From a virus: a DNA stretch of 64,000 bases. The stretch lies in IMG/VR virus record IMGVR_UViG_3300044274_000334; one strand, given 5' to 3'. The position numbers and the translations under genes are program-made. Below the pieces are notes generated by a model. The model saw nothing but the letters and a program-made list of their open reading frames with translations. It was not told the origin of the DNA and ran no database searches. This document shows positions 38,605-57,352 of this stretch, in pieces (the first letter of the stretch is position 1; each line of letters starts with the position of its first letter).

Positions 38605-40661
38605 CACCAGATACTCCCTGATCCCGACCAATGACCGCCCGGTCGCCTAGCCTTTGGCTGCTGCGTCGGAGGATCTGGTTCTGGTTTTTGTGGACTTGGT
38701 GGCGCGCTCGACGTCGCCTGGCGCCGCTTCGGAGGACCGTCGCGGAGTTTGGAGAGGTTGAGCATCGCCGCAGCGGCGGCCTGCATGGCTTCCACATCGA
38801 GGAAGTGGTTGTCCTTGTGAACGCGCACCCATTTCGTCTTGCCGCCCGGTGCCCGGATGCGACTTTCAGAAACGATCTGCCGGCAGTAATCTTCGCCGAC
38901 ATCGCTAGGCAGAAACCAAGCACCGCTTGCTTCCCGATCCCAACGAACCTTCTGCAGTACCCATGACTTGAAATAGTCCGTGTCGAGACGGACCAGTTCC
39001 AAACCGCGTTTGATGACCTTGCCATCGATGTTGATGTCGATGTTGCTGGTCATGATCGGCTTCCTCATCGCAGACGAGGAACCCTTTGTTGCGCGGGCGA
39101 TGTTTTTGAAGCGCCGTGCGAAGGCATAGACCCGGTGCTCAGGCACGAGGTCCTTCTTGCCAGGACGAAAACCAGAGTCGATGAGGCCGAGACGGATTGG
39201 AATGCCGTCGTAAGTGTCGGTCAGGATTTCGCCAAGCGTATCCCAGACCTCCATGTCTTCGGTTGGACCGAAGATTTCTTCTGCCTCAACGAGCCAAGAG
39301 GTTGCTCCTGCCCCCCAGCCTCGAATGCTGTAGATGAGCCGGTCTCTCTGAACGTCACACGCCAACGTCAGAACCCTAGCGCCGTCCGGCACTTCGCCCA
39401 TGCTGTAGGTCTTGAGCGCGCACTTCTGGACTTCTGTCCATTCGGGCGCCTCGCCGCCTGCCGGTGACCACAGCTCTCCAAAGCCCTGGTTCTTCACCGA
39501 TTGAACGGCACCTGGATCACCTGATCGAACGGCTTCGACGTACCTTGCGGCTCGATCGCCCCAAGACACGAACGGAGAGGCCAGACCCGAGACCCAATAG
39601 GACAGCGTCCAGCTTTCAGGTGGCAATCCACCGACGACACCGTCGGTTCCAACATGCTGGCCGGGAGCAACGTAGACGCCACGCTCGTTCATCCAAGTTT
39701 TCGTCGCACCGTCCTCGCCTTCCTCTATGACGCCCCCGCATCGAGGACAGACAAGGTGGGCGGTCCGCTTCGCAAGCGCGGCGGTCGACGGTAGCTCCCG
39801 GCCAGTGCTCGACACGGGTTTGTCCCATGCCAAACAGGTGAAGCGGGGAATGAAGTATTCCTCGCAATGCGGGCACGGCCATGCCCAATGGTACCTGGTG
39901 CCTGACAGCCAAAGCCGCCAGACGGTTGACTTGATCTCTTCCGGATCCGCGTCGGCCCAGAACTCAAGCCCCGACTCTTCGTCGATCTCCACTTCCGTTG
40001 CCCCCTCGCTCGGCGTCGAAGTCACGGCGTGGACGAAGTCCGCATAGGTGTCGCCGCGGGCATCGATCAACCCGACCGGGTTACCCTGACCACGAAGGTT
40101 CGAAACCATCTCGTCGACCTCATCTGTCAGTGCGAGGCCGAACGGATCCGATTTCATCGCCGTGGAGGACCCTCCATGGGCAAGACGAACCGGAACGCCG
40201 TTGATGAATTTTCGGGTCTTCGTCATCTTGCTGTCGGGGGCCAGCCGGTCACGAAGGCAGGTTGAAGTCATCAGGTCCTCGAGCCTTGGCTCGAACTGCT
40301 CCTGAAGGAACTGCTTGCTCGGACCCACGTAGATGATTGGCACCGGAGACGTGTCCAGGCGCTCACCCATCAGATCCATAAAGCTTTCAGTCTTTCCGCT
40401 CTGCGCGGAGACCACCATCACGACGCGCTTATGTGTGCGGCCATGGACCGCAAGAACGAAAGGCGACATGTAGGGGGTTAGGTGGGGATTTCTCGGACCT
40501 GGTCGTCCGGAACTTGCTGGATAGGTTCGGTTGTTCCGAGCCCATTCAATCGGCGTCGTCCTTGGCCTCGGCTTCAGAAGCTTTGCCACTCGACGCAAAA
40601 GCAGATGCCGTTTCTTCGAAACGATCGAAGAGGCGCTGCTTGCCCTCATCAATGATTGCAT
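38604..40661 (-). CDS. Terminase large subunit (lambda gpA-like); start uncertain
   Basis: SAQSGKTE, DEVDE, STP, CPHC, LACDVQ, IDSG, NHFLD. Confidence 0.93.
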   Translation of the reverse strand: MQSLMRASSASSIVSKKRHLLLRRVAKLLKPRPRTTPIEWARNNRTYPASSGRPGPRNPHLTPYMSPFVLAVHGRTHKRVVMVVSAQSGKTESFMDLMGERLDTSPVPIIYVGPSKQFLQEQFEPRLEDLMTSTCLRDRLAPDSKMTKTRKFINGVPVRLAHGGSSTAMKSDPFGLALTDEVDEMVSNLRGQGNPVGLIDARGDTYADFVHAVTSTPSEGATEVEIDEESGLEFWADADPEEIKSTVWRLWLSGTRYHWAWPCPHCEEYFIPRFTCLAWDKPVSSTGRELPSTAALAKRTAHLVCPRCGGVIEEGEDGATKTWMNERGVYVAPGQHVGTDGVVGGLPPESWTLSYWVSGLASPFVSWGDRAARYVEAVRSGDPGAVQSVKNQGFGELWSPAGGEAPEWTEVQKCALKTYSMGEVPDGARVLTLACDVQRDRLIYSIRGWGAGATSWLVEAEEIFGPTEDMEVWDTLGEILTDTYDGIPIRLGLIDSGFRPGKKDLVPEHRVYAFARRFKNIARATKGSSSAMRKPIMTSNIDINIDGKVIKRGLELVRLDTDYFKSWVLQKVRWDREASGAWFLPSDVGEDYCRQIVSESRIRAPGGKTKWVRVHKDNHFLDVEAMQAAAAAMLNLSKLRDGPPKRRQATSSAPPSPQKPEPDPPTQQPKARRPGGHWSGSGSIW

Positions 40662-41076
40662 CTATCCGCTGCCTCTCTCGAACAACTCCCGTGATCTCGG
40701 CCGGCAGCCCGGACAAATATGATGCGAACTGACCGGTGATCTCCTCGATCACAGCCAATGCCTCATCCATTGAGATCAATTCGCGGTCCTTCTTCGCCAT
40801 GTTGAGCTGGATCTCGCGGGCTTTCAGCTCGCGTAGGTCATCCAAACTGGACGAAGCGGCTTGGCGGGTAGCGCCGTCTTTGACGTGCGCGATGTAGGCC
40901 TGAGTGACTTCCATCGGGTCATAGGCACCGGTGGCCACCTTCGGCAGAACTCCGTCTTTCACCAGCTTATGGAACCACACAGATTTCAGACCCAGGAACG
41001 TGTGCATTCCTTTGGCCGTGAGGAGCACCGGGTCTAAGGAGTTTTGCCGGATCGCCTTCGGGGGCGGCTTCTTCAT
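40546..41076 (-). CDS. Terminase small subunit (Nu1-like)
   Basis: N-terminal winged HTH (WFHKLVKDG), coiled coil, position. Confidence 0.8.
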   Translation of the reverse strand: MKKPPPKAIRQNSLDPVLLTAKGMHTFLGLKSVWFHKLVKDGVLPKVATGAYDPMEVTQAYIAHVKDGATRQAASSSLDDLRELKAREIQLNMAKKDRELISMDEALAVIEEITGQFASYLSGLPAEITGVVRERQRIDAIIDEGKQRLFDRFEETASAFASSGKASEAEAKDDAD

Positions 41077-41775
41077 TCAGTACCTCATGATTTTTTCCAG
41101 GCGTTTGGTCACCTGGATCTCAAGCTCACGGGGGGCGTAAGTCTGAAATGTCTGAAGGGAGTCGCCCTGAGGGATTTCATCTCTCAGCGCGGGACCGTAG
41201 AGCGAACGGATCTTGCCGTACCGCTTGCCGGTGCTCATGAAGCGCCCGCTGCCGTCACGCGGCTGACCAACTTTCCGACCGAACGTCCACAATGCCCGAG
41301 GCGCAGTGCTGCTCGTACCAGCGCTCGCTGGACGAAAGGCCTTGAACTTGCCGTTGGTCTCAAACGACCGCTTGAAGACGCGGGGAACATTCCAGACGCC
41401 AGATCTGACCGTGCCAGTTTCAAGCGCTGATCGGCTGGCGTTCATCCGCTTGAAGGCATCTCCACCAGACTTGACCGATCGAAGTCCCTTGTACTCTTCG
41501 ATTGGAGCACCACGACGAACCGAGAAGATCTCGTAAGAAAGGCTCGCTTCGCGTGGGACGCCTCTGGTGTGAGCAACGACGCTCTTCTGATACCGGCCAC
41601 TTTTCAGGCCCATCTGCAGATAGACAGCTTTCTGGACCCGGGTCTTGGTCTTTCGCCCGGTGTCGATGACGCCGCGATGCAGCTCCTTGCGGAACTTCGG
41701 CGACACCATCACGCGGATGGACCGGCCGACACTGATCATCACCTCGTGGTTCTCAACCCGTGTCGATACCGCCAT
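41077..41775 (-). CDS. Basic phage protein, possibly lambda gpZ-like
   Basis: Very basic; GRKTKTRVQKAV, LYGPAL. Confidence 0.5.
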   Translation of the reverse strand: MAVSTRVENHEVMISVGRSIRVMVSPKFRKELHRGVIDTGRKTKTRVQKAVYLQMGLKSGRYQKSVVAHTRGVPREASLSYEIFSVRRGAPIEEYKGLRSVKSGGDAFKRMNASRSALETGTVRSGVWNVPRVFKRSFETNGKFKAFRPASAGTSSTAPRALWTFGRKVGQPRDGSGRFMSTGKRYGKIRSLYGPALRDEIPQGDSLQTFQTYAPRELEIQVTKRLEKIMRY

Positions 41776-42274: not shown

Positions 42275-42523
42275 TTAGTCAGGATCTCCTTCGAGGCGAA
42301 CGCGGCCAGGCTTAAACACGGAGCGGTTCACGGCCATGAAGCCCTTCTCAAGCTCGGTTCGACCGATGGACAACCAACGAGGATCGACAGTCGGATCATC
42401 GGCCAGACCGTCGAGAAGCCGCAGAACCTCTTCCTCTTTGACTTTCATCTGATTGACCTTGGCAACCTTCTCGTCTGACTGGCTGCGGTACCCAGCGACC
42501 GGCAATCCCAAATGCTGTGTCAT
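42275..42523 (-). CDS. acb2: Acb2-like cyclic-oligonucleotide sponge (anti-CBASS)
   Basis: GYR, N-x2-K, RWLSIGRT, GFMAVNRSVFKP; strong RBS. Confidence 0.8.
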   Translation of the reverse strand: MTQHLGLPVAGYRSQSDEKVAKVNQMKVKEEEVLRLLDGLADDPTVDPRWLSIGRTELEKGFMAVNRSVFKPGRVRLEGDPD

Positions 42524-42900: not shown

Positions 42901-43480
42901 CCGTCATGGGCAGGCGGGCGCATTGCCGGGGATGACCGGGCAAGAGGCAGGGGCAGGCAGGACCACGGCACGGCGGCAGGCTTGCAGCGAAGGCCAGCAA
43001 GGCGGCAGGCATGACAGCGGGGACGGATGACAGGGGCAACGGGTGCTTTCCCTTCCTGCCCCTTCCCTGCCCCGCCTCCGGCGCTGGCGTCCCTTCCCTC
43101 GCTCCTGCCTTTTCCGTCTTGCCCCCTGCCGGGGATTGAACCGGGTGCGGTTCCTGCCCTGTTCGGTGCGGTCCTTCCCCGGCTGGTCTGCCGGTGCCGT
43201 TCGGCTGGCGCGCTTCCATGCCTGCCGGTGCGGGCTGGCGCGCGGCTCTAACCGGTGCGGGATATATGGGGCGGGGTTACCTGGACGAATTGCGCCACGA
43301 TTGCGCGGCAGTGACCGGGCAAGAAAAAACCCGGCTCTTTCGAAACCGGGCAGGCTGCACTTTCGAGGGGAGGTCAGGCGCTGAACGCAAATCGCCCTTA
43401 TGGGAACTATGCATGACTCGGCCTTATCAGGAAGGCAAGAGGCGGCACGGCAGGCAATCCAATACGCAGGCAATCAATAC
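42901..43480. repeat. Polarised GGCA/TGCC motif array
   Basis: Hand count: 10 GGCA (42901-43040), 10 TGCC (43041-43230), 8 GGCA (43300-43475). Confidence 0.8.
43324..43350 (-). terminator. Leftward terminator upstream of cos
   Basis: Minus strand CCCGGTTTC-GAAA-GAGCCGGG-TTTTTT. Confidence 0.6.
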
Positions 43481-43493
43481 ACAACGTGTTTTT

Positions 43494-43673
43494 TCGATAA
43501 AAAATAGTATCGACCACCGCTTAACGTATTGTTTTTGCACATTCTTTTCTGACAAATCAGGCTGAAAAAACTTAAAAAAATCGACAACTCGTCAGAAAAT
43601 AAATCTAACGAAAACAACCACTTATAATTTTTTTGAACTTTTTTTTGCCGGATCAATTCAAGACGTATAGAAA
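43494..43673. promoter_or_regulatory. AT-rich divergent control region
   Basis: TCGAT-N10-ATCGA; TTTTCTGAC/GTCAGAAAA inverted pair; candidate rightward TTGCCG-N17-TAGAAA. Confidence 0.55.
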
Positions 43674-43674
43674 C

Positions 43675-44321
43675 ATACACATCGAAGCTGAAAACATTCA
43701 CTTCGAAGCGGTTTCTAACCGGGTTCTTTCTCAATCAGTCCTTTCTGAATGCCTCGGGTCACTTTCGGCGGCTTTCCTGTTACCTGATACGATTCGTTTC
43801 GTATTGGCCTTGGAATGCTCCTGATACATCCAATGAGGGCAAACATTTGGCTAGGGCGCAATATGGCGACGCAATCGGGCTGTGAGGTTCGGTTACGCTG
43901 GTTTGACAGGCTGGCGATTAGGCGAAGGGTTTAGACAGGCATAACCATAAAGACCTGTATCGGTGAAGGTTCCGGCTGAAAATCACCTAGGGCACGTTCC
44001 TAGGAAGGATTAGGCAAAAAGGCTGAAACGGATGACAAGTAGAAACAACCTTGCAACCTGTCCAAAGGGTAAAAAGACAAGGGTTTCTGAGAAGTTTCGG
44101 AGATATTGACGACAGGCAAATGCCTGTTAGGTGGCGGAAAGATAGCTGGCGACGCAGGAGGGAACCTAACGGGGACTGACTTGCTGGTCTTAAATCCACA
44201 ACCGCGACAGGCAAGAGATTGAAACGGAATTTTCGCTATTCCGTTGAACCTAACAAAGCGATTGCAAAAGAGATTTTACGACATGGAACGGTGCGGTCAC
44301 TGACCGCGCCGTTTTGCTTTT
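43675..44321 (+). ncRNA. Candidate ~650-nt structured leader or non-coding RNA
   Basis: No credible ORF; many short stems, some with G-U pairs; repeated motifs; ends in a terminator. Confidence 0.4.
44287..44321 (+). terminator. Intrinsic terminator ending the leader
   Basis: AACGGTGCGGTC-ACT-GACCGCGCCGTT then TTGCTTTT. Confidence 0.7.
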
Positions 44322-44381
44322 GGCCTTCCCTTGCCTGCCCCCTTGGCTGGCAACGGCGGATCAAAAGCGAAAGGAAAAATC

Positions 44382-44549
44382 ATGGTTGCATATCTGCACG
44401 GATCAAAAGCCAAGGGCTGGACGCTGACAATTTGCAAACAGCCTTGCGCCGGACCGGAGTTTAACAACTCTGAGAAAATCACGGTTTCCGGCAAGCGTGA
44501 AGCAAACAAAATCTGCAAAGAACGCGGCATAAAGCCTTGGAATTGGTGA
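44382..44549 (+). CDS. First early gene, 55-aa basic protein
   Basis: AAAGGA RBS; VSGKREANKICKERGIKPWNW. Confidence 0.7.
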   Translation: MVAYLHGSKAKGWTLTICKQPCAGPEFNNSEKITVSGKREANKICKERGIKPWNW

Positions 44550-44641
44550 AGTTTTTCAGCCTATGGGCAAGCAATGCCTTGCCCATATACGGGAAAACAG
44601 CCCGACAACTTAAACCCAGAAAGACCGAAGGGAATATGATC

Positions 44642-45274
44642 ATGGCAAAGTTTGAAATTCTGAACGCAAAAGCTCTTTCCGCTGCTCTGAAAACCCGTGG
44701 CAAGGCCATTGCAACGTTCAAAGAACGCGAGCACCAGCTTGCCGTCTCCTGTATCAATCACGCTGCAGAAAACGGCCGTGCTGACCACCTGAATACCCTC
44801 CTCGAAATGACCCCGGGCAACTATCGCCTCGGCCTGATCAATTGGGCTTGCGAGTTCGGGAACGTGTCCTACGACTCGAAGGAACGGACCTTCAAAATCG
44901 CAAAGAAGAAAGAGGCCAAAATCGCGGCAAGCATGGATATTGCCCCGGCAGACTTCCAGAAGGCGAAGAACAGCAAGCCGAAGGCCGCGTTTAATCAGGT
45001 CACCTATCTGGAAAACGCGCTCAAGAAACTGACCGAAGAAGAAGGCGTTTCCCCTGCCGTCCTGCGCGGCATGAAAGACCTCCTGCGCCTCGCTCAGCAA
45101 GAGGCAGAAGGCGTTGCGCCGAAAAAGGCCAATGCGCCGAAGCACAAGGGCGGCAAGGTGCTGGAAACCGTCCCGGCAAAGGTCAAGGGCAAGGCTGTTG
45201 CAATCAAGGCGAAGGCCAAGCCGGAAACCGCCCCTGTCGTGGAAGCACCGGCAGAAGTGGCGCAGGCCGCCTAA
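44642..45274 (+). CDS. Early protein with Lys/Ala-rich tail
   Basis: LAVSCINHAAENG...LINWACEFG; RBS GAAGGGA. Confidence 0.8.
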   Translation: MAKFEILNAKALSAALKTRGKAIATFKEREHQLAVSCINHAAENGRADHLNTLLEMTPGNYRLGLINWACEFGNVSYDSKERTFKIAKKKEAKIAASMDIAPADFQKAKNSKPKAAFNQVTYLENALKKLTEEEGVSPAVLRGMKDLLRLAQQEAEGVAPKKANAPKHKGGKVLETVPAKVKGKAVAIKAKAKPETAPVVEAPAEVAQAA

Positions 45275-47263: not shown

Positions 47264-47293
47264 ACCACTCCAACCACTCCATCTGAATGCATG

Positions 47294-47320
47294 GCGCGCT
47301 CCACCGAGCGCGCTTTTTTT
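47294..47320 (+). terminator. Intrinsic terminator
   Basis: GCGCGCTC-CACC-GAGCGCGC-T7. Confidence 0.85.
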
Positions 47321-47339
47321 ATGCCAAGGGATCAATCGC

Positions 47340-47657
47340 ATGACAGACCCGATCGCAATTCGTGACCGTTTGCAGGGCTTCTACACCGAGCAGGACGGCG
47401 GTCCGTTCTATATGTGCACGCCACGTCACACGCGCCTTGCCGAAGGCTTCTACAAATCTCTGAACGCCCTCAAGGCTGCGCAGTGGTTAGCGGGAATGCC
47501 TATGCCCAGCGGCTGGAACGTGACCCGGATGAATGACCTGTTTGCCGAGGTCGATTGTGGTCAAGAAACTCTCGCCACCATCTGGATCCGCGAAGCGCTG
47601 GCCTTCTTTCCCGACTGCCTCTCCCGGCTTCCTGTCCCCTCTGATCACACGGACTGA
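47340..47657 (+). CDS. Hypothetical protein
   Basis: RBS directly after the terminator. Confidence 0.65.
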   Translation: MTDPIAIRDRLQGFYTEQDGGPFYMCTPRHTRLAEGFYKSLNALKAAQWLAGMPMPSGWNVTRMNDLFAEVDCGQETLATIWIREALAFFPDCLSRLPVPSDHTD

Positions 47658-47661
47658 CAAC

Positions 47662-48396
47662 ATGAACGCTCCCGCACTTGCGACGCCGCTCCCGTGCGGC
47701 GAATTTACGTTTGACCAGCTGCCTGATAGCGCAAAGGAACATGCGCTCGACAACTGGCGGCACGATGGCCCGCATGACGAATGGTACGATCACACGATCG
47801 AGGATTTCGTGCGCATCGGTGAGATGATCGGCATATCCTTCAAGACCCGGCCGACCCGGCTTTATTCCGGATCAATCGTCCAAGAACCGAATGTCTTTTT
47901 CACCCTCGCATATTGCCAGGGAGACGGCGCATGCTTCGAGGGAGACTGGACGCCACCTGCCGCCCCGTTCGCCGCGCTGTCGAGCGTCATTGAGTACGCA
48001 CCGACGGACAATCGCCTTCACGAAATCGTCTTCAGCATCATGAAGGTTGCCGAAGAACTCGGTCCGAACAGCAATGAAAACGGGCACGTATCCGTCAACG
48101 TCTCCCACCGCGGCGCCTATTACCATGAGCGCAGCTGCCTTTTCGAGAGCCATGATACCAGGTTGGCGACCGCATACGACGACTGGAACGAGCTTCAGCA
48201 AATGGTCTGGGACCGCCTCGCTGAGAAGCGGGGTTTCTTCAAGGTCGAAGACACGATCAAAGAGCCGATGATCAATCTCATGAAGTGGCTCTATGACCAA
48301 CTGCGTGACGAGCACCAGTACCTGACCAGTGACGAGGTGGGGCGCGAAGAACTGGCCGAAAAAGTATTCGACTTCGAAGGAAACGAGCTGACATGA
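47662..48396 (+). CDS. Hypothetical protein of a family common in mobile elements
   Basis: EWYDHTIEDF...CQGDGACFEG...DQLRDEHQYLTSDE. Confidence 0.7.
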   Translation: MNAPALATPLPCGEFTFDQLPDSAKEHALDNWRHDGPHDEWYDHTIEDFVRIGEMIGISFKTRPTRLYSGSIVQEPNVFFTLAYCQGDGACFEGDWTPPAAPFAALSSVIEYAPTDNRLHEIVFSIMKVAEELGPNSNENGHVSVNVSHRGAYYHERSCLFESHDTRLATAYDDWNELQQMVWDRLAEKRGFFKVEDTIKEPMINLMKWLYDQLRDEHQYLTSDEVGREELAEKVFDFEGNELT

Positions 48397-48839
48397 GAAA
48401 ATCCCCCACGCAGCTGACACTGTCCGTCGTAGACCGGTTGACCGGCGCTCTGCCGGAGCGCGTCAGATACCGTTACCGCACCCGGCTCTGGCGCTGGCGA
48501 CAGGTCGTGAAACGGATGCGCATTGGCCTGAAGTACGCCGCAGGCACACTCACCGAACCGGAGGCTCGCGATCTCCTTTGGGAGGCGGAGCAGATTGCTG
48601 GCATCCAATCCCTCGAGTCCTACGGCATCGAGAGCTTCACAACTGAAGTGCTGGAACGGTTCGGCATAGACCTGGACGAGGCACCCGAATACCGCAAGCT
48701 CGCAAAAGAGGCGATCGCCCGCATGGGGGGGCGCTTCGAGAGCGCAGGTCACCAGCGCGATGTCGCGGCTGAGTTCTCCATGGAGTTCTTCATCAAATAC
48801 TGCAACGACGACGGATTAGCCCTCAAGGAGGACGCATGA
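48393..48839 (+). CDS. Hypothetical protein
   Basis: ATGA coupling. Confidence 0.7.
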   Translation: MRKSPTQLTLSVVDRLTGALPERVRYRYRTRLWRWRQVVKRMRIGLKYAAGTLTEPEARDLLWEAEQIAGIQSLESYGIESFTTEVLERFGIDLDEAPEYRKLAKEAIARMGGRFESAGHQRDVAAEFSMEFFIKYCNDDGLALKEDA

Positions 48840-49084
48840 CACCAAACATCACGAACGCCGACCGCGCCGAGGTCGCCTTGGCTGCCGTTCACGCCTTTCA
48901 AGAGACCGATTACCCGGAGGGAATTCTGGAACAGGACATCCGGGACCTGATCACCAACCTTTGCCACCTCTACCGGCGCGAATGCCTCGACGATGAAACG
49001 AACCCGGTGAGTAGCATCGAGGAGATGCTGGAACGGTGCGCCTCGATGCACGACGCGGAAGTCATCGAGGACGATGAGGAGTAG
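48836..49084 (+). CDS. Acidic small hypothetical protein
   Basis: AAGGAGG RBS; NADRA...DLITNLCHL. Confidence 0.75.
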   Translation: MTPNITNADRAEVALAAVHAFQETDYPEGILEQDIRDLITNLCHLYRRECLDDETNPVSSIEEMLERCASMHDAEVIEDDEE

Positions 49085-49110
49085 CAGTACCCGCCAACCA
49101 ACCTTCATCT

Positions 49111-49134
49111 ACCCGCCATTGAGCGGGTTTTTTT
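49111..49134 (+). terminator. Intrinsic terminator
   Basis: ACCCGC-CATTGA-GCGGGT-T6. Confidence 0.85.
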
Positions 49135-49153
49135 GTGCCTGAAAGGACCTGCC

Positions 49154-50056
49154 ATGAACATGATGAATACGCCTTCTGCCTCTGCCACTCTTGCCACCCG
49201 CGCCATGCTGGTGTCGCTGTCCATTTCGCAATGGTCCGGGCGCCGCCTCGACCGTGAGGTCACCGATGAGGTGAACAGCTCTCACAATGCCGCAAACGAT
49301 GCCGGCCGGTACAACAAGCTCTTGCTGCCGAAGGAGGCGTTGAAGGACATCGTCTCGATTGTCAGCGAAACCCGCACAGGTTTCACCGAGCGGACGTTGC
49401 CGTGGATGGATGGCGGTACCCGCATCATGGCGGCCGACGCCTACATGGCCCATTCATCCTGGCTCAACAAACAGCAGGCGAAATTCAACGCTGCGGTTGA
49501 CGACTTCCTCCTCTCCTACCCTGCCCACGTGAACGCCGCCCGTGCTCGCCTCAGCGGCATGTTCAAGGACGAAGATTACCCGGACGTCTCCGAACTTCGC
49601 GCCAAGTTCGGGATCGAGATCAAGATCCTGCCGGTACCGACGTCTGAAGACTTCCGGGTCGATATCTCGGACGCCCAAGCAATCTTCCTTCGCAACGAGA
49701 TCGAGCGGAACGTCACCGAAGCCACCCGGCTTGCTGTTCGGGACGTCTATGGACGGATTGCCGAGGCGACCAAGCGCATGGCTGAGAAGCTCAAGGCCTA
49801 CAAGCCGGCAACTGGTACCGGCAACCGAGCAGAGGGTGTCTTCCGCGACTCTCTCGTTGAGAACATCCGCGACCTGATTGGTCTACTGCCGGGTCTCAAC
49901 ATCACCGGGGATCCGGAACTCGCGAAGATGGCAGATGCGCTGAAACCGCTGGCCGTTCACGATGCCTCGACGCTCCGTGAAGACGCCATCCTGCGAACCA
50001 GCGTGGCTGAAGAGGCCGCTGCAATCTTCGCCAACGTCTCGGACTACATGTCGTGA
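49154..50056 (+). CDS. Helical protein, possibly DUF3150-like
   Basis: MLVSLSISQWSG, TLPW, FRDSLVENI, LNITGDP. Confidence 0.6.
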   Translation: MNMMNTPSASATLATRAMLVSLSISQWSGRRLDREVTDEVNSSHNAANDAGRYNKLLLPKEALKDIVSIVSETRTGFTERTLPWMDGGTRIMAADAYMAHSSWLNKQQAKFNAAVDDFLLSYPAHVNAARARLSGMFKDEDYPDVSELRAKFGIEIKILPVPTSEDFRVDISDAQAIFLRNEIERNVTEATRLAVRDVYGRIAEATKRMAEKLKAYKPATGTGNRAEGVFRDSLVENIRDLIGLLPGLNITGDPELAKMADALKPLAVHDASTLREDAILRTSVAEEAAAIFANVSDYMS

Positions 50057-50412
50057 GACTGGTCGAACCGGCGACGGTGCAGCATATGCGCCGTCTCCTT
50101 ATCCGCATGCAGTCCGAAGTCTTGGAGCACTGCGGTGGGGCCATCTCCGACACGCTTCGGACGACCATCAATGAAACCGATGCGCTGATCTGGAAAACGA
50201 TCAACGCCAACAAGGCTGACATCATGGACGGTGAAGACATCTGTGCCTGCCAGAACTGTGATTGGCGAGGCACGATCGCCCAATGCGATCCTATACAGGA
50301 CATTTTCCAGCGTGTTGCCCCAGGCGAAACCATGCCTGCCGGCGAATGCCCCGATTGTGGGGCTCTCACACAAGTTTGCCGGCAGGAAATGAAGGAGGCG
50401 GCCAATGGGTGA
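50053..50412 (+). CDS. Zn-ribbon hypothetical protein
   Basis: CQNC...CPDCG. Confidence 0.7.
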   Translation: MRLVEPATVQHMRRLLIRMQSEVLEHCGGAISDTLRTTINETDALIWKTINANKADIMDGEDICACQNCDWRGTIAQCDPIQDIFQRVAPGETMPAGECPDCGALTQVCRQEMKEAANG

Positions 50413-50929
50413 CCGTTGCTGGGTCAACGCCCGGATCGGAGGGCACATTGCAAGCAGAGAAGCATTCGACCGACTTCTGGGGCAGATCAACGACGACGGT
50501 GGCGAGCCGATGCACAGCGAAAATATGCGTACCGAGTTCCTGAGTGCTATCGATCACCCAACTAATCTCGAGTTCAGCTTTTTTGGCGTCAACGACGGTG
50601 CGTTGCGTTGCCTGGAAGATCTTTGTTCGGAACTTGATCTTTATTATCAAGCGGACAATGGCGAAGGAGAACATTACACCGCGGCCTGCAAGGCAATTGT
50701 TCCCAAAAACTCAAGCTGCAAGTACGCCGGTCACAGGTTCCACTACCCGGCTTCCGAAGCTGAACCCATGCTCTCAGCCGCTGCCATCAGACGCCACCTC
50801 GACGCCGGGACCTTGACCGAAGAATTGCGGAGGATGGATATCGCAGGCGGCAGCGAGTTGCCTCCAATTTCCGCTGCAGTCGAGGTCGTCGCATACCTCC
50901 GGATCAATCCAAAGGCGGAAGCAGCATGA
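50405..50929 (+). CDS. Hypothetical protein
   Basis: AAGGAGG RBS. Confidence 0.7.
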   Translation: MGDRCWVNARIGGHIASREAFDRLLGQINDDGGEPMHSENMRTEFLSAIDHPTNLEFSFFGVNDGALRCLEDLCSELDLYYQADNGEGEHYTAACKAIVPKNSSCKYAGHRFHYPASEAEPMLSAAAIRRHLDAGTLTEELRRMDIAGGSELPPISAAVEVVAYLRINPKAEAA

Positions 50930-51138
50930 GCAATCTGCGCGTTGTCACCGTCCACATGGAGGAGACGGTCTACTACAGGTTCGATGTCGAAATTCCGGCC
51001 GACACCGAACTGACAGAGGAGACCGTCGCTGCCGAAGCCGAAGCGCACTTTTGCGCGAACGGTCCCCAGGATGGCTGGTTCATAGGCTGCGACGAACGCA
51101 AGGTGACCAGCTTTACCGAAGCTGATCAGAGATCCTGA
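50926..51138 (+). CDS. Small acidic hypothetical protein
   Basis: ATGA coupling. Confidence 0.7.
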   Translation: MSNLRVVTVHMEETVYYRFDVEIPADTELTEETVAAEAEAHFCANGPQDGWFIGCDERKVTSFTEADQRS

Positions 51139-51165
51139 CCAGAACACCGATATCTCTCCAAACTC

Positions 51166-51188
51166 AGCCGCCTCTGTGCGGCTTTTTT
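51166..51188 (+). terminator. Intrinsic terminator
   Basis: AGCCGC-CTCTGT-GCGGCT-TTTTT. Confidence 0.8.
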
Positions 51189-51209
51189 CTTGTCTGAAAG
51201 GATGATCAC

Positions 51210-52196
51210 ATGAACCTCAACGAAGCCTCCGAAACCCTTGAGATCCTGCTCGACGCCGACACACCCGCCATGCTCTGGGGCGCAGTCGGCATCGGCAAGT
51301 CATCGATCGTGAAACAGGTCGCAAAAAAGCGCGAGCAGAAGGTCATCGACTTCCGTGCTTCCACCCGTGACCCGGTCGCCCTCATGGGCCTGCCTGATAT
51401 CACCGGTGACACCTCTCGCTGGAAGGTGCCGGATGAATTTCCCAAGGTCGAACGCGATGGAGCCGAGGGCATTCTTCTCCTTGATGAGATCAACGCCGCT
51501 GCACCGTCGATGCAGGCAGCCTGCTTCGGTTTCGTTCTTGACCGGCAGGTTGGCGAGTACAAGTTGCCGGAAGGTTGGCGGATCGTAGCCGCTGGCAACC
51601 GGCAGTCTGACCGGGCGGCAGCTCAACGTATGCCGTCCGCTCTCGCCAACCGCTTCGCGCACATCGATGTCGAGCCCGACGTCAAGACGACCACTGACCA
51701 CTTCAACGAGATCGACCTGTCACCAGTCGTTACTGCATTTCTGCGGTTCCGGCCCGAGCTGCTGCACAAGCCTGGCAATGGTGATGCTCGGTCGTTCCCG
51801 ACACCCAGATCGTGGGAACAGGCGGCGAAGTTCATCGACGCTCCGGAAAAGCTTCGGTTCGGGCTCCTCGCCGGCAACGTCGGCGAGGCAGCTGCAGGAG
51901 AGCTGGAAGGCTTCATCCGCACCTACCGCAATCTACCGTCGATCGAACTGGTGCTCGCTAATCCCAACAGTGCGCCCGTGCCTGAGAAACCGGACGCACG
52001 GTTCGCTATCTCTTCCGCTCTCGCTCGGAGGGTAACTGAAACCACGATCGCCAATGCCTGCGCTTACATGAAACGGCTCCCACGGGAGTTCACTATCAGT
52101 TTCATGGTCGATGCCGTTCGACGGCGTTCCGGTCTGTCACACACGGACGCATTTGTGCAGTGGTCCACTGAGAACCAGGACGTTGTGTTCGGATGA
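51210..52196 (+). CDS. MoxR-type AAA+ ATPase
   Basis: Walker A GAVGIGKS, Walker B LLLDE, IVAAGN, ANRFAH, PTPRSWE. Confidence 0.9.
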   Translation: MNLNEASETLEILLDADTPAMLWGAVGIGKSSIVKQVAKKREQKVIDFRASTRDPVALMGLPDITGDTSRWKVPDEFPKVERDGAEGILLLDEINAAAPSMQAACFGFVLDRQVGEYKLPEGWRIVAAGNRQSDRAAAQRMPSALANRFAHIDVEPDVKTTTDHFNEIDLSPVVTAFLRFRPELLHKPGNGDARSFPTPRSWEQAAKFIDAPEKLRFGLLAGNVGEAAAGELEGFIRTYRNLPSIELVLANPNSAPVPEKPDARFAISSALARRVTETTIANACAYMKRLPREFTISFMVDAVRRRSGLSHTDAFVQWSTENQDVVFG

Positions 52197-52531
52197 GCGA
52201 GCTGATCTGCGGTCCAATCCAATTCGATTGGCGGTCCGATACTATCGAGAGGAGCGACCGGTTCACTTGGTCCTTCATCGGGTTCACCGAAGACACGGTG
52301 AGGCGTCGCCGCCTCACCTTCAACACCAAGACCCGGAAGTTCTCTTCCTCAATTCAAACCAAACGAGACCGGGAGTTGGCGCCAGATAACCAGCGCCACC
52401 TCAGGACAATCTACTTACCTTCCTGTGTCCGGCTGAAGGATCTTCCCGGCGCAACACCCACGGAACGGCTTCGCTCCATGCTCAGCGAGAAGGAGGTCGC
52501 CCATGCCCTGTCCCGATCAATCAACCGATAG
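52193..52531 (+). CDS. Hypothetical protein
   Basis: ATGA coupling. Confidence 0.65.
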   Translation: MSELICGPIQFDWRSDTIERSDRFTWSFIGFTEDTVRRRRLTFNTKTRKFSSSIQTKRDRELAPDNQRHLRTIYLPSCVRLKDLPGATPTERLRSMLSEKEVAHALSRSINR

Positions 52532-52546
52532 ACTGCAGGAGGCCAG

Positions 52547-52897
52547 ATGGTTGCTCTTCGTTATGTTTGGGGCCCATTCAAGAAGGAGCGCTTCGACAAA
52601 CGAGGCGAAATGAGCTGGCATTTCAATGCCATTCGCGTCGATCACACCACGGCGCACTACAAGCTCACCTATCACGCGGCCCTTAGAGCGTTCAAAGCCT
52701 CAAACGTCCCGCTCTCAAAGTCCACGAAGGCTCACATTGAACACCCTGACATGTTCATCGGTTCGGATCGTTCGAAAGATCCTCCGGTGAAGGAAGGGAA
52801 GCTCAACAAGATCCTGCGTGACTTGCTCACTCAGGCGGATCTCGCGGAATGCACTGCAATGTCCATCCTCCACGCCAAGAATATGGGCATCGGGTGA
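52547..52897 (+). CDS. Hypothetical protein
   Basis: GGAGG RBS. Confidence 0.7.
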   Translation: MVALRYVWGPFKKERFDKRGEMSWHFNAIRVDHTTAHYKLTYHAALRAFKASNVPLSKSTKAHIEHPDMFIGSDRSKDPPVKEGKLNKILRDLLTQADLAECTAMSILHAKNMGIG

Positions 52898-53807
52898 TGA
52901 AGCATGTGCAAACACAGCTCGCTCAAGATGTGTTCGAACTCAGAGTGGTGATTTTCAATGTCTGCGAGTAGATACGCAGTTCAACGTCTTGAACTTGATT
53001 CAGCTTTCTAACGGAAAGGTCACCAGTTTGCGCTGGAACAAACAAAATATCAGGCCAGGGCTGATCGCCCTGGGTGATAGTCACGCTCTTTACAATTTCG
53101 CGGGTGTTGCTGACGCCAAGATATTTTGGCTCGGCCCTGTCACCATGCACCGAGCAGCACGGGACGGTATCCGCGTTCTAATCCCGAAAAACTGCAGGCC
53201 GAACAAAGGTGACTTCTTCGTACTGTCTTTTGGTGAGATTGATTGTCGGGCGCACGTTAAAAGGCAGTCTGTCTTAAAGGAAACGGACACGATTGAAGAA
53301 GTTGACAACCTTTGTGCCCGCTTCGAAGCGGCGTTGACAGAATTCAAGGCAACGTGCCGAGCGAACATATGCTTGATGTCTGTCGGTCCGTATAACCCGG
53401 AGTTCCTTGACTGCTCGGCCTATGACAGCCCCGAGGAATGTAGGCAGGACGCTAAGGCGATCCGCGACCGCATCAATCAACGGCTGTCGCAAATGGGGTA
53501 CCCATTCATTGATTACCGGGATGCGTTCTCAAACGCAGATGGGTCCATCAAGTCGGACATGTCGGATGGAAATGTTCATATCGATCACCGGCTCTCTGAA
53601 CCAATTTTGACCGCCTTGAACCTGGTAACCGGCGTTTCCTACGCCAGCAGGATACCGCCTTGGCCGTATCCCCGTTCGCTGAACGAGCCGCCTTATGTCC
53701 ACCCATTGAAGCTATTGCAGAAGCGCCTACTGCACTTCACGCGCCCGTTCCGTCGGAGATTGGGGAAGTTAGTCCCCGGTCGCAAAACGGATCGAAAGCA
53801 TCCGTAA
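52818..53807 (+). CDS. SGNH/GDSL-type hydrolase; true start probably near 52990
   Basis: ALGDSH, FGEIDCR, SDGNVH. Confidence 0.7.
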   Translation: MTCSLRRISRNALQCPSSTPRIWASGDEACANTARSRCVRTQSGDFQCLRVDTQFNVLNLIQLSNGKVTSLRWNKQNIRPGLIALGDSHALYNFAGVADAKIFWLGPVTMHRAARDGIRVLIPKNCRPNKGDFFVLSFGEIDCRAHVKRQSVLKETDTIEEVDNLCARFEAALTEFKATCRANICLMSVGPYNPEFLDCSAYDSPEECRQDAKAIRDRINQRLSQMGYPFIDYRDAFSNADGSIKSDMSDGNVHIDHRLSEPILTALNLVTGVSYASRIPPWPYPRSLNEPPYVHPLKLLQKRLLHFTRPFRRRLGKLVPGRKTDRKHP

Positions 53808-53820
53808 ATGAGGAGAAGCG

Positions 53821-54114
53821 ATGATCAAACTAAAGATCTACGCCCGCTCCAAATGCCTCAGAGAACAGAGCGGTGACCTTCTCTGGCTCTTCGACGTTTG
53901 TCAGGAAGGCTGGGACCCGCAGCGGTACCAGCTGAAGTTCAAGGCGGCCAGACGGGTGTTTCAAGCAACGCCCGTCAACATGAAAGTTCCCCTCCGGATC
54001 GACAAATCGAAAGCCATCGACGTCTCGGGGAAGTCGTTCCGCGAGATTTTCAAATCTCGACTGACACAAGAGGAGATTGCTCGCTGTACCCGAGCAGCAA
54101 TCGAAAGGAGATAA
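53821..54114 (+). CDS. Hypothetical protein
   Basis: GAGGAG RBS. Confidence 0.7.
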   Translation: MIKLKIYARSKCLREQSGDLLWLFDVCQEGWDPQRYQLKFKAARRVFQATPVNMKVPLRIDKSKAIDVSGKSFREIFKSRLTQEEIARCTRAAIERR

Positions 54115-54115
54115 C

Positions 54116-55297
54116 GTGACCCCAGCAGACAAGATCCTGGCTGCCCGCACTGCATTGCTATGGGACCATCCGTTCTTTGGCGCTCTCGCCATAGGGCTGC
54201 AGACGGTCAACGCCACCAGCGATCCATCGATCACCACAATGGCAACGGACGGAACGCACTTGTTCTACGACGACAAGTTCGTGGCCGGCCTAAGCAAAGA
54301 GGAGTTGATGTTCGTCCTTGCCCACGAGGTATTGCACAACGCCTTTGAGCATCACATTCGGCGACAGGATCGCGCGCCTGGCAAGTTCAACAAAGCCTGC
54401 GACTACGCGATCAACGGCGAGCTGGTCGCGACCGGCGTTGGGAAGATGCCTGTCCTCGGTCTGATCGACCCGCACTTCACCGGGTTGGGGGCCGAACAGA
54501 TTTACAACATGCTTCCTGACGACGACGGGGGCGGCTCAAGCAATGGAGACGGAAGCGGTTCTGGATCAGGCAGCTCAGCCGACCCGGGCGGATGTGGTGG
54601 CGTTCTTGACGCTGCTCCCAGCCATGACACCGCCGCCTTGTCTAAGGCCCGCGCTGAAATGCAGACGAAGGTGCGCATGGCTGCCAATCTTGCGAAGGCT
54701 GCGAACCAAGGCACCCTTCCCGCTGCGGTGCAAAGAATCGTCGACAGCCTTCTGAAGCCGAAGGTCGATTGGAGAGCTGTCCTCCGACGTTTCGTCGATG
54801 AGTCTGTGACCCGCGACTTTTCGTGGGCTCGCCCGAACCGACGTCTTCTGCCCCATGGCTTCATCACGCCGGGAACAATTTCCGACGGCGTCCCTCACGT
54901 TTCCATCTGCGTCGACACCTCCGGGTCGATCGACGATGAAATCCTGGGCGCATTTGCAGCTGAAGTCCGCGGTGCCCTGGACGAGGGTGCGGTCGACGCT
55001 ATCACCGTCGTCTACTGCGACGCAGCGGTCGGGAATGTCGACAACTTCGAACGCGGTGACGAGCTTGCCTTGCACCCCACCGGTGGCGGCGGGACAAGGT
55101 TCAGCCCCGCTCTCCGGTACGTTCGGGAGAAGCGGTCCGATACCAAGGCAATCATCTATCTCACCGACCTGCACTGTAGCGACTTCGGCCAGGACCCAAG
55201 CATCCCGGTTCTTTGGGGCGTCTACGGTCGCGACAAGGACTTCGATAGCCTTGCCACTCCCTTCGGTGAGTTGATCCAGATCCAAGAAAATCTGTGA
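54116..55297 (+). CDS. DUF2201-type metallopeptidase-like plus vWA domain protein
   Basis: MATDG, AHEVLH (HExxH), Gly/Ser linker, VDTSGS MIDAS, GGGGT, YLTD; GTG start after AAGGAG. Confidence 0.88.
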   Translation: MTPADKILAARTALLWDHPFFGALAIGLQTVNATSDPSITTMATDGTHLFYDDKFVAGLSKEELMFVLAHEVLHNAFEHHIRRQDRAPGKFNKACDYAINGELVATGVGKMPVLGLIDPHFTGLGAEQIYNMLPDDDGGGSSNGDGSGSGSGSSADPGGCGGVLDAAPSHDTAALSKARAEMQTKVRMAANLAKAANQGTLPAAVQRIVDSLLKPKVDWRAVLRRFVDESVTRDFSWARPNRRLLPHGFITPGTISDGVPHVSICVDTSGSIDDEILGAFAAEVRGALDEGAVDAITVVYCDAAVGNVDNFERGDELALHPTGGGGTRFSPALRYVREKRSDTKAIIYLTDLHCSDFGQDPSIPVLWGVYGRDKDFDSLATPFGELIQIQENL

Positions 55298-55304
55298 GGT
55301 TCCC

Positions 55305-55781
55305 ATGCCCATCTATTTCGTAAATGCAGGTACCGTGAGTGGTTCGTGCGACTTCAGCATGTTTGTCGAAGCTGGCGAGCCGATCGAGGTTCCCGAGATT
55401 TACAAACGAGACGTGTCCTCCTGCTTCAACGTTCCTGTAGAGGAGCTTGAAATCAAGGACATCTTTGAAATCCCCCAACCGAACGGACGGAATAGGGTGC
55501 TCCCTTGGAGCGACACCGAAGGCGTTTGGTCGGTGGTGCATTGGGCAATCGAACCGGTCAGCAACTACACCGTCATCGGCCGAGCCCATGGCGACGACGA
55601 GGCGACGACGATCGTCTTCAACGACTGCACCCGATCGGAAGCGTTGAAAAAATTCGCCGAGGACCTTCGCCCTAATCCGGACCACCTCGCTATCCTTCGG
55701 GAGAACGCAGATACCCCCGATTGGGATGGCGTCTACATCGACGCCGTCATCAACTCCTCAGCCCCTATGACCCTAGCCTGA
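55305..55781 (+). CDS. Hypothetical protein
   Basis: GAGGT RBS. Confidence 0.7.
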   Translation: MPIYFVNAGTVSGSCDFSMFVEAGEPIEVPEIYKRDVSSCFNVPVEELEIKDIFEIPQPNGRNRVLPWSDTEGVWSVVHWAIEPVSNYTVIGRAHGDDEATTIVFNDCTRSEALKKFAEDLRPNPDHLAILRENADTPDWDGVYIDAVINSSAPMTLA

Positions 55782-55805
55782 CACCACCATCCTAAACGCA
55801 GACGC

Positions 55806-55830
55806 GCCGGCAACTAAGCCGGCTTTTTTT
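55806..55830 (+). terminator. Intrinsic terminator
   Basis: GCCGGC-AACTAA-GCCGGC-T7. Confidence 0.85.
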
Positions 55831-55842
55831 ATGGAGAAACCA

Positions 55843-56712
55843 ATGAACAAAGTGCACCCGGTTGAGGACTGGCAATCAGAGGTCGTCAATGGTGAAACAC
55901 GGTTGGGATATGCCGATTGGGTCCAGTTGCAGGACGATACCACGAGATCTGCTGTGAGGTTTGACCTAAGGGGTGCGGTCGACATCATCGACTCTGCCGC
56001 CGTGTCCTTGATCGGCGACAGCGGCGACGTCCCTTCCGAACTCCCAGGTTTCGCGGCAGCAAAAGCACTCCTCCAAGAAGAGATCTCTGTCCTGGCCGGT
56101 GAAAGCCGGCCGGAAAAGGATCCGACGTTCACCTACCTGCAGATGGAGGCGGCCTTGTGCGTCTGGGAATGGATGCTGGAAAACAGGCATGACATCAGCA
56201 AACAGGACGTCTTGCAGCGTTTGGAAAGCTCCAATGCACACGACATCATCAATTTGAACGCGACCTGGGACGGCAACGGCAGCCCTACGATGCGGGATCT
56301 AGCACGCCACGCCGGCGACATCGTCCTTGCGGTTCATGATCGCATGATCGCTGAACACTTCGATTGGGAGGCTCCTTACGATTGGGAGTTTGTCCCTGCG
56401 GTTCTACGGCACATCGATTGGGACAACCTGAACTCTCGGCACAGCTACGGTGGCAAGGAAGACGATGTCCACGATATCGAGGCGATCTGGGAGCACATCA
56501 AGTCGCATGAAGCCGATAACCTCAGCGAGTTCGACCCGAAGCAGCGATGGATCTCCGAAGCTTTAGCCTACGCTCATCGAAAGTACAGCTGCAGAGACAT
56601 CGTCGAAGGTCACCCTGAGATGGCAGACCAATCGTACCTGGATGGTGAGAGCCCTCGTCAGTACGTCGATGATTTCGCTCGAAAGTATGATGTGGACTGC
56701 CCGGACCAGTAG
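55843..56712 (+). CDS. Acidic hypothetical protein
   Basis: GGAGA RBS after the terminator. Confidence 0.75.
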   Translation: MNKVHPVEDWQSEVVNGETRLGYADWVQLQDDTTRSAVRFDLRGAVDIIDSAAVSLIGDSGDVPSELPGFAAAKALLQEEISVLAGESRPEKDPTFTYLQMEAALCVWEWMLENRHDISKQDVLQRLESSNAHDIINLNATWDGNGSPTMRDLARHAGDIVLAVHDRMIAEHFDWEAPYDWEFVPAVLRHIDWDNLNSRHSYGGKEDDVHDIEAIWEHIKSHEADNLSEFDPKQRWISEALAYAHRKYSCRDIVEGHPEMADQSYLDGESPRQYVDDFARKYDVDCPDQ

Positions 56713-56714
56713 CC

Positions 56715-57098
56715 ATGGAGACAGGCAGAAGCATCGGTGATGCAATATTGGAGCGTGTCTACGCGGAACTGCATGACCCCTACCATGTAGATGTGGCCAG
56801 CCTGATCGCAACTTTCGAGGAATACCGACCCAGGATCGACACCCGTGAAGACCTCGTACAGCTCGAGGAAGACATCGATGACCTAACCAGTGCATATCAG
56901 ACTTGGTCGAAAGGTCGCATCTATCCGGTCATCGTTGATTACGAGGCGGTGCCGGTCACCTTTACGGCAGCAACCGTGAGAGTGAAACACGGTGTGCCTG
57001 AAGCAGAATACTCGAATTGCGCTCTGCTGCCTTCGCACGGCCTCCGATACACAATCCCGAAAGTCAGAAACAAAACGACGAACCTTGAGGAGCACTAA
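56715..57098 (+). CDS. Hypothetical protein
   Basis: In the operon context. Confidence 0.6.
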   Translation: METGRSIGDAILERVYAELHDPYHVDVASLIATFEEYRPRIDTREDLVQLEEDIDDLTSAYQTWSKGRIYPVIVDYEAVPVTFTAATVRVKHGVPEAEYSNCALLPSHGLRYTIPKVRNKTTNLEEH

Positions 57099-57328
57099 AT
57101 CTGTATTGCCTGATCACCGAGGACGACGGGATCGCCACGCTCTACGAGCTGACACCACCCGAACGCTTGACGGTCATCGCTCAATCTGTGCTTCAGCCGC
57201 CCGGTTCTGAGATGACACACAAGCTCGTCGACCACTCCACCGCAATGCGGCATGTCCGAGACGGCGGACGATTTGTAACCGAACGGCCTGCCAACCTCGG
57301 TGCGCTGGCCGTTGTCACCCCTCTTTAT

Positions 57329-57352
57329 GACCCGCCTTTGAGCGGGTCTTTT
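57329..57352 (+). terminator. Intrinsic terminator
   Basis: GACCCGC-CTTTGA-GCGGGTC-TTTT. Confidence 0.75.

Follow-up and report, generated by a model that had tools for sequence, protein, structure and literature searches.

Known RNA antiterminators are 70–120 nt in length; HK022 put, at ~70 nt, consists of two stem-loops and lacks a boxA. In ribosomal RNA (rrn) operons boxA alone can form the antitermination complex, an assembly that blocks Rho and also hampers intrinsic termination; other long untranslated transcripts are also served by boxA (PMC13753749). The element described here, a predicted RNA of ~640 nt that heads the early operon in a Roseibium prophage, resembles the rrn boxB–boxA and lambda nut sites in two respects: a hairpin is followed by an unpaired block close to the rrn-leader element of the host, and the site is close to the 5′-end of a long transcript and is followed by terminators. 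It differs in that ~500 nt of conserved, pseudoknotted RNA follow the module, and in that no N-like protein gene stands between the site and the first terminator. To the rrn loci of its hosts the RNA family shows no similarity beyond a block of 13 nt. Like put, it follows closely on an early phage promoter, and it could conceivably act in cis with no phage protein; its length (~640 nt) sets it apart from put as that element is described.

Large, well-conserved bacterial and phage RNAs of unassigned function are rare, and to our knowledge each of those found so far (OLE, GOLLD, ROOL and HEARO) has opened new biology. Like GOLLD, ROOL and OLE, the RNA described here is longer than 500 nt and contains many covarying helices and a pseudoknot; in contrast to them, it is alphaproteobacterial, holds a fixed place at the head of an early operon and carries a boxA-type module, and their Rfam models give no homology to it. 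Like GOLLD and ROOL it is encoded in prophages (PMC12286853). A third comparison is with the P4 CI, P1 c4 and N15 CA systems, which are likewise leaders of an early or antirepressor operon ending at terminators. Those, however, are short processed antisense RNAs with conserved target pairing, and conserved pairing of that type was not seen among the members of this family.

The stretch of DNA analyzed (64 kb in its entirety, hereafter the window) carries a Roseibium sp. prophage, a copy of which, 97% identical, occupies a site in the chromosome of a Roseibium metagenome-assembled genome (MAG). We read it as a temperate, cos-type prophage of Roseibium in which the RNA unit heads the early arm. 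Its large terminase is closest to those of Microcystis phage Mae-JY30 (47%), Vibrio phage VP882 (41%) and Halomonas phage phiHAP-1 (36%). The RNA lies in a 1.16-kb gap without credible ORFs, flanked on one side by the late arm (− strand) and on the other by the early arm (+ strand); details are given in Table 1.

Table 1. Features of the RNA unit and of the neighboring prophage genes (positions in the window).
Feature	Position	Strand	Remark
Small terminase gene	40546-41076	−	late arm
232-aa protein gene	41077-41775	−	conserved; opens the packaging arm in each related phage
Acb2/Tad1-like gene (82-aa product)	42275-42523	−	late arm, upstream of the terminase genes
114-aa ORF	end at 43219	−	late arm
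Promoter-like region	43644-43678	+	−35-like hexamer ~43644-43650, −10-like hexamer ~43666-43671
Operator-like inverted repeat	43665-43678	+	4-nt arms 6 nt apart; overlaps the −10
Whole predicted RNA (~640 nt)	43680-44321	+	5′-end inferred from the conserved promoter, 3′-end from the terminator U-tract
5′-terminal hairpin	43682-43706	+	folded
boxB-like hairpin	43709-43721	+	directly 5′ of the boxA-like block
boxA-like unpaired block (13 nt)	43722-43734	+	11/13 against the rrn-leader element of the nearest host (L205, 1242-1254)
Long irregular rod	43738-43857	+	apical hairpin 43786-43805; single-sequence fold, z −1.4
Central domain	43863-43982	+	model R1: 65.2 bits, E 3.8e-14
Conserved block, central domain	43863-43874	+	
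Central hairpin with conserved loop	43896-43916	+	pairs 43896-43901/43911-43916
H-type pseudoknot stem 1	43928-43931/43943-43946	+	
H-type pseudoknot stem 2	43935-43939/43954-43958	+	
Conserved 18-nt block	43959-43976	+	
Variable insertion	43983-44107	+	includes hairpin 43986-44004; length and sequence differ by lineage; absent in L192
3′ domain	44108-44217	+	model R2: 72 bits, E 3.3e-18
3′-domain hairpin	44112-44127	+	arms 44112-44117/44122-44127; different sequences in relatives
16-nt block	44129-44144	+	invariant in five lineages
3′-domain hairpin	44154-44184	+	
Conserved block, 3′ domain	44199-44215	+	
Tail hairpin	44223-44245	+	lineage-specific
Intrinsic terminator	44287-44321	+	arms 44287-44299/44301-44313, then T-rich tract to 44321
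55-aa gene	44382-44549	+	first gene of the early arm
212-aa PHROG 1448 protein gene	44636-45274	+	downstream neighbor of the RNA
Strong intrinsic terminators inside the early operon	47293, 49111, 51166, 55806, 57329	+	at least five

The initial annotation described an ORF-free span running from a promoter to a terminator, and this description is borne out: 43680–44321 is non-coding, with a conserved promoter before it and a strong terminator at its end. The start had been set at 43675 and the length at ~650 nt; both shift slightly. In all relatives the upstream DNA has the same layout (a −35-like hexamer, 16–17 nt containing a short palindrome, and a −10-like hexamer) and the conserved 5′-end of the RNA lies 6–9 nt past the latter, which would place the start in the window near 43680 and give an RNA of ~640 nt. 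At the other end, the terminator hairpin (44287–44313) has a predicted ΔG of −17.9, and the 97% copy departs from it only at 44308, where A-U replaces G-U. A G+C-rich hairpin and a run of T precede the first early gene in every relative, in some instances as two or three in tandem; the stretch from the last conserved block to the terminator varies. The RNA strand is purine-rich in all members.

One side observation concerns the promoter. Relative to the 97% copy, substitutions cluster at 43560–43705, which takes in the AT-rich promoter/operator region and the 5′ hairpin: 24 of 144 nt differ there, and ~1.6% in the remainder of the RNA. The hot spot may mark a diverged immunity specificity or a recombination patch.

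Coding is, together with the DNA-level and immunity roles considered below, among the less likely roles for the region, and that one or more small proteins are encoded here is scarcely credible. Although ORFs of 40–130 codons can be drawn on both strands of the G+C-rich members, no ORF is common to the homologues, length, frame and strand all being variable, and the indels that separate members are not multiples of three. In the window there is no credible ORF in 43475–44381; inside the RNA none exceeds 42 aa (+ strand) or 75 aa (− strand).

Direct DNA searches with the window RNA returned only the 97% copy. A profile search of retrieved loci gave a weak collinear match in the genome of a second Roseibium species (G073), where the layout is that of a packaging arm, an AT-rich promoter-like stretch, ~600 nt without ORFs, a terminator and a PHROG 1448 homologue. 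A 15-nt block common to the window and G073 led to three further members in IMG/VR: the exact-pattern scan of IMG/VR with this core gave 106 matches, four of them real, while a second exact pattern found no further members there and an exact-pattern scan of metagenomes gave 12 matches, all by chance inside coding sequence. The first five members were all divergent from a packaging arm beginning with the 232-aa protein, and an alignment of this protein led to 21 IMG/VR loci; each of those with enough upstream DNA has the element on the opposite strand. The homologues number ~15 (the 97% copy, the second Roseibium species and 13 IMG/VR proviruses), a family of only about twelve distinct sequences.

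The place of the RNA is fixed. In related alphaproteobacterial prophages it separates the packaging arm from the early arm, and it reads away from a conserved gene order comprising the 232-aa protein, TerS, TerL and portal, upstream of which it lies. Since TerL is just 55–73% identical in amino-acid sequence among these loci, neutral non-coding DNA is expected to be unalignable; nevertheless, the loci share invariant blocks of 10–18 nt, between which stand hairpins of changing sequence. The homologues of the 232-aa protein are 44–56% identical to the window copy, with many residues invariant; the protein belongs to no Pfam family and has only a weak match to PHROG 27. It is the best marker of this phage group. 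The 55-aa first gene of the early arm was tried as a handle for the RNA and rejected: its relatives head similar divergent operons that lack the RNA.

The family is rare. Within the genus, 2 of 72 genomes carry the RNA; among other genomes of the family there were none in 60, and a DNA search of 132 family genomes returned G073 only. At the level of the order, model R1 run over 151 genomes found the 97% copy and nothing in the 150 others. GenBank phages gave no DNA match to either the window RNA or a typical member, nor did GenBank plasmids to a typical member. Across the whole window Rfam 15 gave no match at gathering scores, and at E up to 10 just three sub-threshold matches, the best with 25 bits against a cut-off of 57. 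A comparable RNA was not found described in open-access text. By these sequence comparisons the RNA is an undescribed family, and the novelty that the initial annotation had made dependent on an Rfam search stands: its proposal of an undescribed large non-coding RNA agrees with the lack of matches in Rfam and in GenBank phages and plasmids, and with the strong covariation within a syntenic family.

Single-sequence folding energies were not decisive (z −2.7, −2.3, −1.4 and −0.9, the first two being those of the whole RNA on the + and − strands against 20 shuffles). The energy is just modestly unusual, and so the verdict that the structure exceeds chance rests on comparative evidence. In eight members of the main clade RNAalifold predicts the 5′ rod as five stacked helices, with 92.1% of cells paired as opposed to 35–53% when the partners are slid; 29 of the 38 pairs have changed on both sides, and none of 500 shuffles reaches the observed values. 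The single-sequence fold of the 5′ part of the window presents, in order, two hairpins, an unpaired block and a rod of ~120 nt. The architecture of this rod is that of the covarying rod in the eight relatives, a likeness claimed at the level of architecture and not helix by helix.

The central domain was aligned across 13 sequences with a model that held the conserved-loop hairpin and one long-range stem only. Here 85.8% of cells are paired (34–39% when slid) and 10 of 16 pairs have changed on both sides. These figures include pseudoknot stem 1, which crosses the other stem; because it was absent from the alignment model, its pair count is unbiased. The window rows are one column off in the alignment (A6), and the central pair coordinates in Table 1 were therefore taken straight from the window sequence. 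Pairs of the 3′ domain were counted on a covariance-model alignment; a MAFFT alignment misplaced the hairpins. The proportion of paired cells in this domain is 81.2%, compared with 23–56% slid, and in one hairpin five of six pairs have changed on both sides; in the hairpin formed by the invariant 16-nt block the variation is limited to changes from G-U to G-C. Model R2 matches all members that possess the 3′ domain. Four loci (L183–L185 and L193) have the 5′ domain in common with the rest and 3′ halves that are different. Even the 97% copy is informative: its 5′-terminal hairpin differs at six positions, which comprise two compensatory pairs (43685/43703 and 43691/43698), a G-C to G-U change at 43704 and one change in a bulge.

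Compensatory changes are thus found in three regions, well above slid and shuffled controls, in line with the covariation among homologues that the initial annotation had asked for. The signal also has a strand: G-U pairs occupy 70 cells, and the early-operon strand is 86–92% paired as against 77–79% when read on the opposite strand. Many loops are GNRA or UUCG. The element is almost certainly a genuine structured RNA. These data bear directly on the possibility that conservation operates on DNA and involves no RNA, for instance through packaging signals, an origin or protein-binding iterons by cos. The region does adjoin the packaging arm, short repeats are present, and a separate 7-nt motif ~300–540 nt upstream is conserved and may act as DNA, but compensatory changes preserve pairing as the sequence changes, the strands are made unequal by the G-U pairs, GNRA and UUCG loops occur, and a promoter and a terminator flank the element on the same strand. 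Furthermore, the 7-nt motif, the likely DNA site, falls outside the RNA. We regard conservation at the DNA level as very improbable.

All the stems listed in the initial annotation are present, either exactly where it placed them or within ~3 nt, and the direct repeats it noted are real. Comparison with relatives divides these stems into two sets. Assigned a place in the family architecture are pseudoknot stem 2, the first hairpin of the 3′ domain, which recurs with different sequences, the terminator, present in every relative, and the apical hairpin that caps the long rod. Specific to this phage are the pairing 43962–43966/43983–43987, the hairpins of the insertion and of the tail, and both of the alternative partners of 44125–44131. 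The proposal of a switch in which one segment chooses between two partner copies is not supported: the partners lie in parts that are not conserved in relatives.

The same result weighs on a reading of the RNA as an immunity leader of the P4 CI, P1 c4 or N15 CA type, in which a processed piece would pair within the same transcript, cause premature termination and keep the early genes off in the lysogen. Such a role would suit the one to three terminators that stand between the leader and the first early gene in every member, the ability of a window segment to pair with two other sites, and the relationship of the terminase to those of the linear-plasmid prophages VP882 and phiHAP-1. The alternative pairing partners, however, are not conserved; what is conserved consists of structured domains and unpaired blocks, with no short antisense/target pair. 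Rfam matches at E up to 10 include no antisense-immunity RNA family of the P1 c4 kind, and the operator-like palindrome on the promoter suggests repression by a protein instead. An immunity leader is accordingly improbable.

Of particular interest is the 5′-end of the RNA, where the 13-nt boxA-like block is the most conserved unpaired block of the 5′ part. A hairpin ends 1–2 nt before it in 15 of 15 members, with stems that differ by lineage and loops that are often GNRA, and the order of hairpin and block is the rrn order of boxB and boxA. In the nearest host the corresponding element occurs in all three rrn leaders, where it follows a promoter-like site and precedes the 16S rRNA gene by ~245 nt; in a second Roseibium host the element at this position differs by two letters. 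We infer that the Roseibium element is boxA from where it lies in the leader and from how closely it follows the published gammaproteobacterial consensus (PMC5725501).

Across 17 sequences the 13-nt block of the phage RNA agrees with the Roseibium rrn element at 10–12 of 13 positions; the block of the G073 prophage agrees with the variant of its own host at 11 of 13. The window taken singly is not significant: its match to the host 14-mer is 11/14, and seven such matches occur in 64 kb. Because this match is weak alone, the case for boxA rests on position-specific conservation across the family. The 5′ module is probably a Nus-loading site.

Downstream of the RNA, a PHROG 1448 gene was present in all 16 of the loci searched. 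Eleven aligned proteins (including homologues from L183–L197) consist of an N-terminal helical domain of ~150 aa and a Lys/Ala/Pro-rich tail, and their invariant last residues, Ala-Ala, are like a degradation signal of the ClpXP type. The 212-aa window protein gave no sequence match in Pfam or PDB. Its predicted structure (pLDDT 77) matches only uncharacterised phage proteins, from T7-like and other podoviruses, and nothing solved. As a query the protein found only itself in a set of 5.8 billion proteins and only the 97% copy among genome contigs; among genomes of the order it was found in 2 of 401. Between the last terminator and the PHROG 1448 start codon most members have a conserved stretch of ~50 nt with a small hairpin, recorded in L185, L191, L192, L193 and L197; this part of the 5′ UTR may be a second regulatory element.

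The early operon is 18 kb long and co-directional (+ strand). A simple promoter scan of its strand found one promoter-like site only, although downstream genes may have promoters of their own that such a scan missed. The five terminators listed within it (47293–57348, + strand) have G+C-rich stems of 6–9 bp followed by 4–7 T, and each stands shortly before the next gene.

We consider the RNA to be a Nus-factor-loading early transcript whose likeliest role, held tentatively, is as a cis-acting aid to read-through into the 18-kb operon. A sigma-70-type promoter bearing an operator-like palindrome would start the RNA near 43680; it would fold in order as terminal hairpin, boxB-like hairpin with boxA-like block, ~120-nt rod, central domain, insert and 3′ domain, and would end at the strong intrinsic terminator. 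The boxB–boxA-like module would load NusB/S10 and other Nus factors on polymerase, as in rRNA operons and at lambda nut sites. Synthesis of the long untranslated RNA would then resist Rho, and Nus loading together with the folded RNA body, tethered to polymerase, would let a fraction of complexes pass the RNA's own and later terminators into the early operon. The support for antitermination is circumstantial: a boxA-type block and hairpin at the 5′-end, and at least five terminators in the operon. A stronger version, an RNA-only processive antiterminator that exploits the rRNA machinery of the host, we think rather unlikely: in it the boxA-type module would load Nus factors, the 500-nt pseudoknotted body, tethered to polymerase, would replace a protein of lambda N type, and the genome end that enters first would drive the 18-kb operon through six or more intrinsic terminators with no phage protein. 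Complexes of the rrn type act mainly on Rho and less on intrinsic terminators. In addition, since known RNA antiterminators are so much shorter, ~500 nt of conserved structure are unaccounted for by a role in cis.

Nearly as likely as the cis-acting leader is another reading: a free-standing, trans-acting ornate RNA of the GOLLD, ROOL or OLE kind, the first product of the genome end that enters first, released at its terminator. The boxA-type module would then serve only to get a long, structured, untranslated RNA made and folded, as for rRNA, and the body would do something else, such as scaffolding, host-factor sequestration or counter-defence. The RNA is a discrete, prophage-borne unit that has a promoter to itself and a terminator both strong and conserved. 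It is built of several domains and includes a pseudoknot, numerous GNRA loops and long unpaired blocks that are invariant; its variable tail sits between the last conserved block and the terminator. The rrn complex, moreover, is said in a review to act also as an RNA-folding chaperone. Against a role in trans, the RNA has no homology to any ornate RNA in Rfam, and a cis leader would be expected to occupy just such an unchanging position, heading the early operon with terminators after it. The strong terminator that directly follows the RNA has been preserved and even improved, which suits a discrete released product and a gated leader equally well.

Either way, the family adds a class of large RNA from alphaproteobacterial temperate phages. 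Unlike the earlier large RNAs, it offers a way into mechanism, through its constant position ahead of the early genes and a 5′ module like that of rRNA antitermination. If cis-acting, no known RNA antiterminator would approach it in size, and the phage would run its early program on host Nus factors alone; if trans-acting, it would mean that phages use rRNA-style transcription for an ornate RNA of their own. Both outcomes are directly testable, Roseibium being a culturable marine genus.

Three further observations concern the late side of the gap. The first is the Acb2/Tad1-like gene, whose 82-aa product matches the Pfam Acb2/Tad1 hairpin domain with E 1.1e-17; this is the family of cyclic-nucleotide sponges to which anti-CBASS and anti-Thoeris proteins belong. 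The second is the 7-nt motif mentioned above (43414–43420 in the window). Of 16 related loci, 14 contain it, each in a single exact copy that lies 300–540 nt upstream of the boxA-like block, with no other copy in slices of 1.3–2.1 kb. It falls in a G+C-rich repeat region that the initial annotation took for cos, a position that makes it a candidate DNA site for packaging or late-operon control. The third is on the minus strand, where a terminator of good quality (43329–43351) precedes the first late-arm ORF and a promoter-like site (43528–43555) lies ~200 nt before the terminator. Together they look like a short terminated late-operon leader, the type of target used by Q- or GafZ-type antiterminators.
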